Positions 51,335 through 51,649 of a DNA stretch of 64,000 nucleotides are shown here, in pieces; position 1 is the stretch's first letter; the number at the start of each line of letters is the position of its first letter. Position numbers and translations under genes: made by a program. The stretch is from Escherichia coli (GTDB lineage: Bacteria; Pseudomonadota; Gammaproteobacteria; Enterobacterales; Enterobacteriaceae). A model generated the notes under the pieces. That model did no database searches, was not told where the DNA came from, and saw only the letters and a list, made by a program, of their open reading frames with translations. The stretch is taken from NCBI RefSeq assembly GCF_003334335.1, contig NZ_QOWQ01000012.1; one strand, written 5' to 3'.

Positions 51335-51356
51335 GGCCAAAACATCGCTTCATCTC

Positions 51357-51600
51357 GTAGGCCGGATAAGGCGTTCACGCCGCATCCGGCATCCGAGCAC
51401 CATTGCCTGATGCGACGCTTACCCGTCTTATCAGGCCTACAAACTTGTGCCTGAACCGTAGGCCGGATAAGGCGTTTACGCCGCATCCGGCATCCGAGCA
51501 CCATTGCCTGATGCGACGCTTACGCGTCTTATCAGGCCTACAAACCTGTGCCTGAACCGTAGGCCGGATAAGGCGTTTACGCCGCATCCGGCAGTCATGC
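51357..51600. repeat. BIME: tandem array of REP palindromes, about 2.4 copies of a 101-bp unit
   Basis: Unit gtaggccggataaggcgtt(c/t)acgccgcatccggcatccgagcaccattgcctgatgcgacgcttac(c/g)cgtcttatcaggcctacaaac(t/c)tgtgcctgaacc starts at 51357, 51458 and 51559 (period 101 bp); each unit holds two inverted REPs. Confidence 0.85.
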
Positions 51601-51649
51601 GTCGATGCCAAATGCGCCACCCTAAAGCAGCGCATCCGCAATGATGTAC

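Follow-up and report, generated by a model that had tools for sequence, protein, structure and literature searches.

A BIME-2-type REP array of variable copy number between the convergent genes ybaQ and copA of Escherichia coli

Described BIME families and the ybaQ-copA locus

BIME-2 elements are composed of y and z2 REPs joined by a short S linker, with a flanking s, l or r linker, and they are present as multiple tandem copies whose number varies among strains (PMC3333891). In BIME-1 elements y is paired with z1, there is only one copy, and the L linker is long and often harbours an IHF site (PMC3333891). For REP325, a BIME-2 array of 12 units, two actions have been described: attenuation of downstream transcription, which is partly Rho-dependent, and stabilisation of the upstream mRNA, which depends on context (bioRxiv 10.64898/2026.03.23.713779). 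According to the same study, the presence of REPs between two convergent genes goes along with higher expression of the pair, and about 40% of such REPs coincide with bidirectional terminators; what a REP does depends on its context, and mRNA half-life is not, in general, prolonged by terminal REPs (bioRxiv 10.64898/2026.03.23.713779). A subset of BIME-2 elements is enriched in gyrase cleavage sites, mainly at Y REPs and independently of transcription, and only a subset of BIME-2 elements is cleaved (PMC6379681). The Y-linker-Z2 units of REP325 are also those on which the Rfam family RF02564 (naRNA4) was built (PMC4550694). RAYT/TnpA_REP, the tyrosine transposase associated with REPs, cleaves and recombines BIMEs in vitro (PMC3333891).

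The array analysed here lies in a 64-kb stretch of E. coli DNA (64,000 nucleotides, referred to as the window), between ybaQ (50993-51334, plus strand) and copA (51650-54154, minus strand; stop codon at 51650-51652). These two genes are convergent, and the array is extragenic, between their stop codons. The segment 50900-52000 was identical to that of E. coli K-12 MG1655, where the flanking genes are annotated as ybaQ (b0483) and copA (b0484), so the gene names given in a first-pass annotation of this DNA were right. The counterpart of the array in MG1655 is found at 508,581-508,818. No repeat_region feature is present for this stretch in the RefSeq MG1655 feature table, and a literature search for ybaQ or copA together with REP returned nothing relevant. 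Neither gene was named in the searched supplements of the gyrase map (PMC6379681), and in those of the REP325 study copA appeared solely as an unremarkable row of an RNA-seq table.

The array resembles the BIME-2 arrays REP325 (between yjdM/yjdN), sucC-sucB and tldD-yhdP in its alternating Y and Z2 REPs, short S linker and tail-to-tail linker, and also in its tandem repetition, extragenic 3' location, copy-number polymorphism and lack of an IHF site. It is shorter than REP325 (5 palindromic units versus 12), its linkers are locus-specific, it is flanked by convergent genes instead of being part of an operon, and it is known here from sequence. With the BIME-1/RIP/RIB elements it shares the presence of REP pairs at the 3' ends of transcription units, whereas the single Y + Z1 pair and the long L linker with an IHF site are all absent from it. 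Inverted REP pairs and REPIN-like predicted folds are common to the array and to the REPIN doublets mobilised by RAYT (TnpA_REP), but the variation of the array is in tandem copy number at one site and not in spread to other sites. With a probability of roughly nine in ten, the ybaQ-copA element is a BIME-2 in the shared 3' intergenic region of two convergent genes, with the roles inferred below. Its structure, its class and its inter-strain variation in copy number are textbook knowledge for E. coli, and nothing anomalous was found.

Anatomy and predicted folding of the array

Tandem Repeats Finder identified a repeat at 51356-51593 with a period of 101, 2.4 copies, 97% matches and no indels (score 455), which was the only high-scoring long-period tandem repeat across the 64-kb window. 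Start-to-start spacings of 101 and 101 were obtained by a gapless repeat search, in agreement with the 101-bp periodicity that had been noted at first reading. The first-pass annotation had placed the array at 51335-51649, which corresponds to the whole 315-bp gap; the array itself is 238 bp long and occupies 76% of it. It had also counted three copies with two REPs each. Motif mapping gave a layout of (Y REP, 14-nt S linker, inverted Z2 REP, 17-nt tail-to-tail linker) x 2 plus a closing Y REP, which amounts to five palindromic units (Table 1). Two REPs per copy were therefore found in the two full units only, the partial third copy having a single Y REP, 3' of which there is unique sequence and then a separate hairpin adjoining copA.

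Units 1 and 2 differed at exactly three positions, consistent with the few differences reported earlier: unit position 21 (C at 51376, T at 51477), unit position 69 (C at 51424, G at 51525) and unit position 90 (T at 51445, C at 51546). Both tail-to-tail linkers (51441-51457 and 51542-51558) read AAAC(T/C)TGTGCCTGAACC. The REP core motif was matched 11 times in the 64-kb window, against 0.54 matches expected by chance, and the Z2 inner stem GACGC/GCGTC was present in the array. A distance of 22-26 nt separates the ybaQ stop codon from the first REP, and one of 57 nt separates the copA stop codon from the canonical REP closest to it.

Every sequence-level character of a BIME-2 was found in the array. 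The Y/Z2 composition was indicated by the Rfam model, to whose Y and Z2 hairpins the two hairpins of every unit aligned end to end, and the alternation by the order GTAG-Y, 14 nt, Z2-CTAC, 17 nt, GTAG-Y. Tandem conservation was evident in the 2.4 copies with 97% identity, and in the few variants among the 0 to 8 copies present elsewhere. The naRNA4 alignment and the motif mapping thus upheld the initial description as a REP/BIME array, extragenic, at a 3' position and with inverted REPs in alternation.

Table 1. Coordinates (in the window) of the parts of the ybaQ-copA gap and of structured RNA elements located in the rest of the window
Feature	Coordinates	Strand	Evidence or remark
Unique 21-nt left flank	51335..51355	+	ybaQ stop TAA ends at 51334; identical across every REP-bearing allele examined
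Y REP no. 1, GTAG + imperfect palindrome, C variant in loop (51376)	51357..51390	+	Motif mapping; first hairpin of naRNA4 model
S linker (head-to-head), unit 1, ATCCGAGCACCATT, 14 nt	51391..51404	+	Motif mapping
Z2 REP no. 1, inverted (iREP; CTAC end on plus strand)	51405..51440	-	Motif mapping
Tail-to-tail linker AAACTTGTGCCTGAACC (T variant), 17 nt	51441..51457	+	Motif mapping and unit comparison
Y REP no. 2	51458..51491	+	Motif mapping, naRNA4 model, folding
S linker, unit 2, ATCCGAGCACCATT, 14 nt	51492..51505	+	Motif mapping
Z2 REP no. 2 (iREP)	51506..51541	-	Motif mapping; naRNA4 match 51461-51538, 89.3 bits; folding
Tail-to-tail linker AAACCTGTGCCTGAACC (C variant), 17 nt	51542..51558	+	Junction found once per K-12 genome
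Terminal Y REP no. 3 (partial third unit)	51559..51592	+	Also the sole REP of the 113-bp 'Y-only' allele
Unique right flank adjoining copA, with REP-like hairpin core 51612-51635	51593..51649	-	Folding
sraA	1496-1591	-	Rfam gathering-level match; expected K-12 feature
Small SRP RNA (ffs)	19231-19327	+	Rfam gathering-level match; expected K-12 feature
dnaX frameshift element	36131-36195	+	Rfam gathering-level match; expected K-12 feature
sroB/ChiX	49979-50062	+	Rfam gathering-level match; expected K-12 feature

Several other repeats were present in the window. A second, single-copy Y-S-Z2 BIME unit, with the same REPs and different linkers, is located at 44222-44299. The REP core motif was also found at 7600, 32734, 36053 and 60157, three of these four sites having one mismatch; the one at 36053, a short distance upstream of the DnaX frameshift element, may have arisen by chance. 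A tandem repeat of 33 bp at 57897-57986 is degenerate, with 2.7 copies and 72% matches (Tandem Repeats Finder score 97).

RNA folding predicted a stable hairpin for each REP on either strand, with energies of -17.5 to -21.4 kcal/mol and z-scores of -3.7 to -6.6; for Y REP no. 1 the values were -19.5 kcal/mol on the plus strand and -21.3 kcal/mol on the minus strand. The C at 51424 breaks one inner stem pair of Z2 REP no. 1, a non-standard pair that is also marked in the naRNA4 alignment, and the energy of this Z2 REP was -17.5 kcal/mol versus -21.4 kcal/mol for that of unit 2. The whole gap folded far better than shuffled sequence (z = -8.4 on the plus strand and -8.2 on the minus strand). In its predicted minimum-energy folds, each Z2 REP pairs with the next Y REP across the 17-nt linker, which results in long REPIN-like hairpins. 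Neither an intrinsic-terminator-like site (a GC-rich hairpin with a U-tract) on either strand of the gap nor a promoter-like site inside the array was found.

The REP-like hairpin next to copA (51612-51635, minus strand) starts about 12 nt after the copA stop codon and is kept in all alleles and in E. albertii. In K-12, this hairpin had a folding energy of -19.5 kcal/mol and gave a weak naRNA4 match on the minus strand (30 bits). In REP-free alleles it is a perfect 14-bp stem of -24 kcal/mol followed by UUAUAGGGAAAUUAUU, a tail that is only moderately U-rich, and it is plausibly the original copA terminator. In the REP-bearing alleles, including that of K-12, the base and tail of the hairpin are replaced by the REP-containing segment, and the base of the stem is truncated. 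Liang, Rudd and Deutscher reportedly described an effect on translation of REPs near stop codons, for which the distance from REP to stop codon must be no more than about 15 nt. The sole candidate for such an effect here would be the non-canonical hairpin, which lies about 12 nt from the stop codon of copA.

Copy number among strains and history of the locus

Unique flanking sequence only (400 bp of ybaQ and 400 bp of copA) was used as a query against 5,426 complete E. coli genomes, of which 5,422 matched, and gap sizes were read from 60 of the 5,422 matches, sampled at even steps down the ranking. The most frequent gap size was 214 bp, which holds one unit plus the Y REP (17/60 genomes), followed by a gap of 57 bp without any REP (14/60) and one of 113 bp with the Y REP only (13/60). 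The K-12 allele of 315 bp, with two units plus Y, was present in 6/60 genomes, the 416-bp allele with three units plus Y (e.g. REL606) in 2/60, and a 618-bp allele with five units plus Y in 1/60. ybaQ was absent from the other 7/60 genomes. In this 60-genome sample, about 23% of genomes had no REP at this site and about 12% had no ybaQ. The gap of ATCC 8739 is 921 bp, corresponding to 8 units. The comparison across strains that the first-pass annotation had suggested thus yielded 0, 1, 2, 3 and 5 units in the sample and 8 in ATCC 8739, with the sizes of the REP-bearing alleles differing by exact multiples of 101 bp.

Alleles were also compared unit by unit. The first unit was conserved, always with C at position 21, and so was the last unit. 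The internal units occurred in runs with common private variants, such as G12 and T26 in five consecutive units of ATCC 8739. The conserved ends and the internal runs sharing variants support the interpretation that the array expands and contracts in place by tandem amplification, as judged from these alleles. The REP stems were almost invariant across units and strains, and the variants were mostly located in loops and linkers. Each of the K-12 derivatives listed (an MG1655 isolate, C600 and ER1709) had the 37-nt tail-to-tail junction at one place, and overall the junction was present in 2,189 of the 5,426 genomes, which had it at up to 8 places each. The S linker of the array differs from that of the BIME at 44222-44299. 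As the junction occurs once per K-12 genome, and as the BIME at 44222 has the same REPs with other linkers, the 101-bp unit is locus-specific, which also supports expansion and contraction in place.

The two units of K-12 and the three units of REL606 lie between flanks that are 99.9% identical, which indicates that unit number changes over short evolutionary timescales. Recent tandem amplification, as proposed at first reading, therefore holds for the change in unit number, and does not hold for the REP insertion, which is older. In E. albertii NBRC 107761, which has no ybaQ, the hairpin of copA is present, as are a Y REP, a linker that is truncated, a Z2-like REP and the S linker. The presence of this Y + Z2-like pair at the same site indicates that the REP insertion predates the current differences in copy number.

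A silver-adapted derivative of ATCC 8739 had 8 units in a 921-bp gap, the same as the parental reference. Expansion of the array under selection on a substrate of CopA (silver) was rejected, as the parent already had 8 units. In E. coli LR-28, a 7-nt microsatellite (CATCCGG, 5-6 copies) was present in the ybaP-copA gap (locus L007, about 3270-3310) in place of the first Y REP. This microsatellite derives from the right arm of the Y REP, and represents a second, smaller-scale mode of slippage within a REP.

ybaQ is an accessory gene encoding a HigA-type antitoxin. In REP-free B2-type E. coli (e.g. ST131 and O18 strains), a RelE/ParE-type (HigB-like) toxin gene is located immediately upstream of ybaQ. 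K-12 is without this toxin gene, which leaves ybaQ as an orphan antitoxin gene. In about 7 of the 60 sampled genomes, ybaQ had been lost by an internal deletion, with only the first ~10 and the last ~25 nt left. In the loci read for these observations (window 50993-51334; L004 1-271; L006 3334-3504; L007 3177-3500), the higB-ybaQ pair was intact in REP-free alleles, and ybaQ was an orphan in REP-bearing ones. This hints that the REP insertion accompanied a remodelling of the toxin-antitoxin cassette.

In Citrobacter, Enterobacter, Pluralibacter, Pseudocitrobacter and other enterobacterial genera, a co-directional ybaP directly follows copA after a short spacer, and there is no ybaQ and no array; some of these genomes have a REP-like hairpin right after the copA stop codon. 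A divergent Escherichia lineage (L008 3066-3493; L012 2064-2790) has an unlike, GC-rich ybaP-copA spacer of 428 bp, with long G/C hairpins, no ybaQ and no REPs.

Possible roles and alternative explanations

Neither gene has a U-tract terminator, so transcripts from both would run into the array. A transcript entering from either gene would be expected to form a series of stable hairpins, each with an energy of -17 to -21 kcal/mol, and these may attenuate readthrough into the opposing gene, partly through Rho, as suggested by the lack of a U-tract. They may also block 3'-to-5' exonucleases, and would in this way set and protect the 3' ends of both mRNAs, ybaQ and copA. At the DNA level, the Y REPs are likely to be preferred sites of gyrase binding and cleavage, independently of transcription; IHF would have no part. 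By analogy with the described BIME-2 elements, stabilisation of mRNA by the array is plausible, and so is the binding of gyrase at its Y REPs. The simplest route for a change in unit number would be unequal recombination between the 101-bp direct repeats, or slippage between them during replication, and RAYT/TnpA_REP may help in this. Many strains are without the array, about a third of the sample lacking either the array or the whole ybaQ segment, and any role is therefore expected to be modulatory and not essential.

The REP-free and ybaQ-less genomes in the sample (about 23% and about 12%) indicate that the array is dispensable and that it could be neutral. An array of neutral or selfish repeat DNA, in which a REP doublet was seeded by a REP-associated transposase and copy number has since drifted by slippage, is a possible explanation, although a doubtful one. 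Presence and copy number do vary freely (0 to 8 units) among near-identical flanks, with many lineages lacking the array, and the 8 parental units retained by the silver-adapted ATCC 8739 derivative are consistent with no response to selection on the substrate of copA. Point variants are also tolerated, including the one that breaks a Z2 stem pair in unit 1 of K-12. However, the near-invariance of the REP stems, with variants mostly in loops and linkers, counts against it, and published genome-wide data tie REPs between convergent genes to higher expression. Neutrality also overlaps with the preferred explanation, a BIME-2 with proposed effects on the 3' ends of both genes, since the hairpins would still affect any RNA crossing them.

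Both full units scored above the Rfam RF02564 gathering score of 59.5 bits, with 89.3 and 79.9 bits on the plus strand, and with 64.0 and 63.6 bits, just above that score, on the minus strand. The matches to naRNA4 (CssrE) were full length, with both hairpins intact. Condensation dependent on HU and naRNA4, and the transcription of most REPs, were described by Qian et al. 2015 (PMC4550694). Taken together, these could suggest a gene cluster for naRNA4-like sRNAs, in which each Y-S-Z2 unit gives a ~78-nt HU-binding RNA that bridges REP cruciforms and condenses the chromosome; this is very unlikely. The unrelated third unit at 44222-44299 also exceeded the naRNA4 threshold (74.3 bits), so the Rfam model in effect recognises any Y-linker-Z2 BIME-2 unit, and the match reflects REP homology and BIME-2 architecture and not a dedicated RNA gene. 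The proposed nucleoid function is itself disputed, as a 2026 follow-up that has the author S. Adhya in common with the 2015 paper observed neither nucleoid compaction by REP325 or the naRNAs nor a stable ternary complex, and detected no REP-REP contacts dependent on HU (bioRxiv 10.64898/2026.03.23.713779). The array, moreover, contains no promoter-like site.

The first-pass annotation had attributed IHF binding to arrays of this kind, and this was not supported for the ybaQ-copA element, a BIME-2 with a short S linker. Neither strand of 51335-51649 matched the IHF consensus WATCAANNNNTTR when up to one mismatch was allowed, and the nearest match was located within ybaQ. The array as an IHF-binding BIME-1 (RIP/RIB) element, for which the general association of some BIMEs with IHF could be invoked (PMC3333891), is extremely improbable and was rejected, the REPs being y + z2 and not y + z1, the head-to-head linker being of 14 nt, and the unit being repeated in tandem.

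A degenerate CRISPR-like array or a coding sequence, to which the regular repeat/linker layout and the ORFs crossing the array (e.g. an 88-aa ORF at 51375-51641, minus strand) might point, has a negligible probability, because the apparent spacers are two invariant linkers that repeat with the unit, the repeats alternate in type and orientation, and the ORFs are by-products of the repeat that shift in length with copy number and vanish in REP-free alleles; the initial view that the array only mimics a repeat-spacer layout was thus sound.

The correct annotation of the region is accordingly a BIME-2 with 5 REPs; labels such as IHF site, CRISPR array, small-RNA gene or coding sequence would be wrong. 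Apart from this annotation, the array matters little. A variable-number repeat of 101 bp can confuse short-read assembly, and it could serve as a typing marker. The Rfam naRNA4 model responds to generic BIME-2 units, and such matches should not be taken as dedicated sRNA genes. It is conceivable, although improbable, that array copy number acts as a heritable noncoding 'dial' for the 3'-end formation, stability or convergent-transcription interference of copA (Cu/Ag efflux) and/or ybaQ, with alleles differing in copper homeostasis. If copy number did tune copA, the array would be one concrete case of REPs as noncoding expression dials, an idea that has already been proposed.
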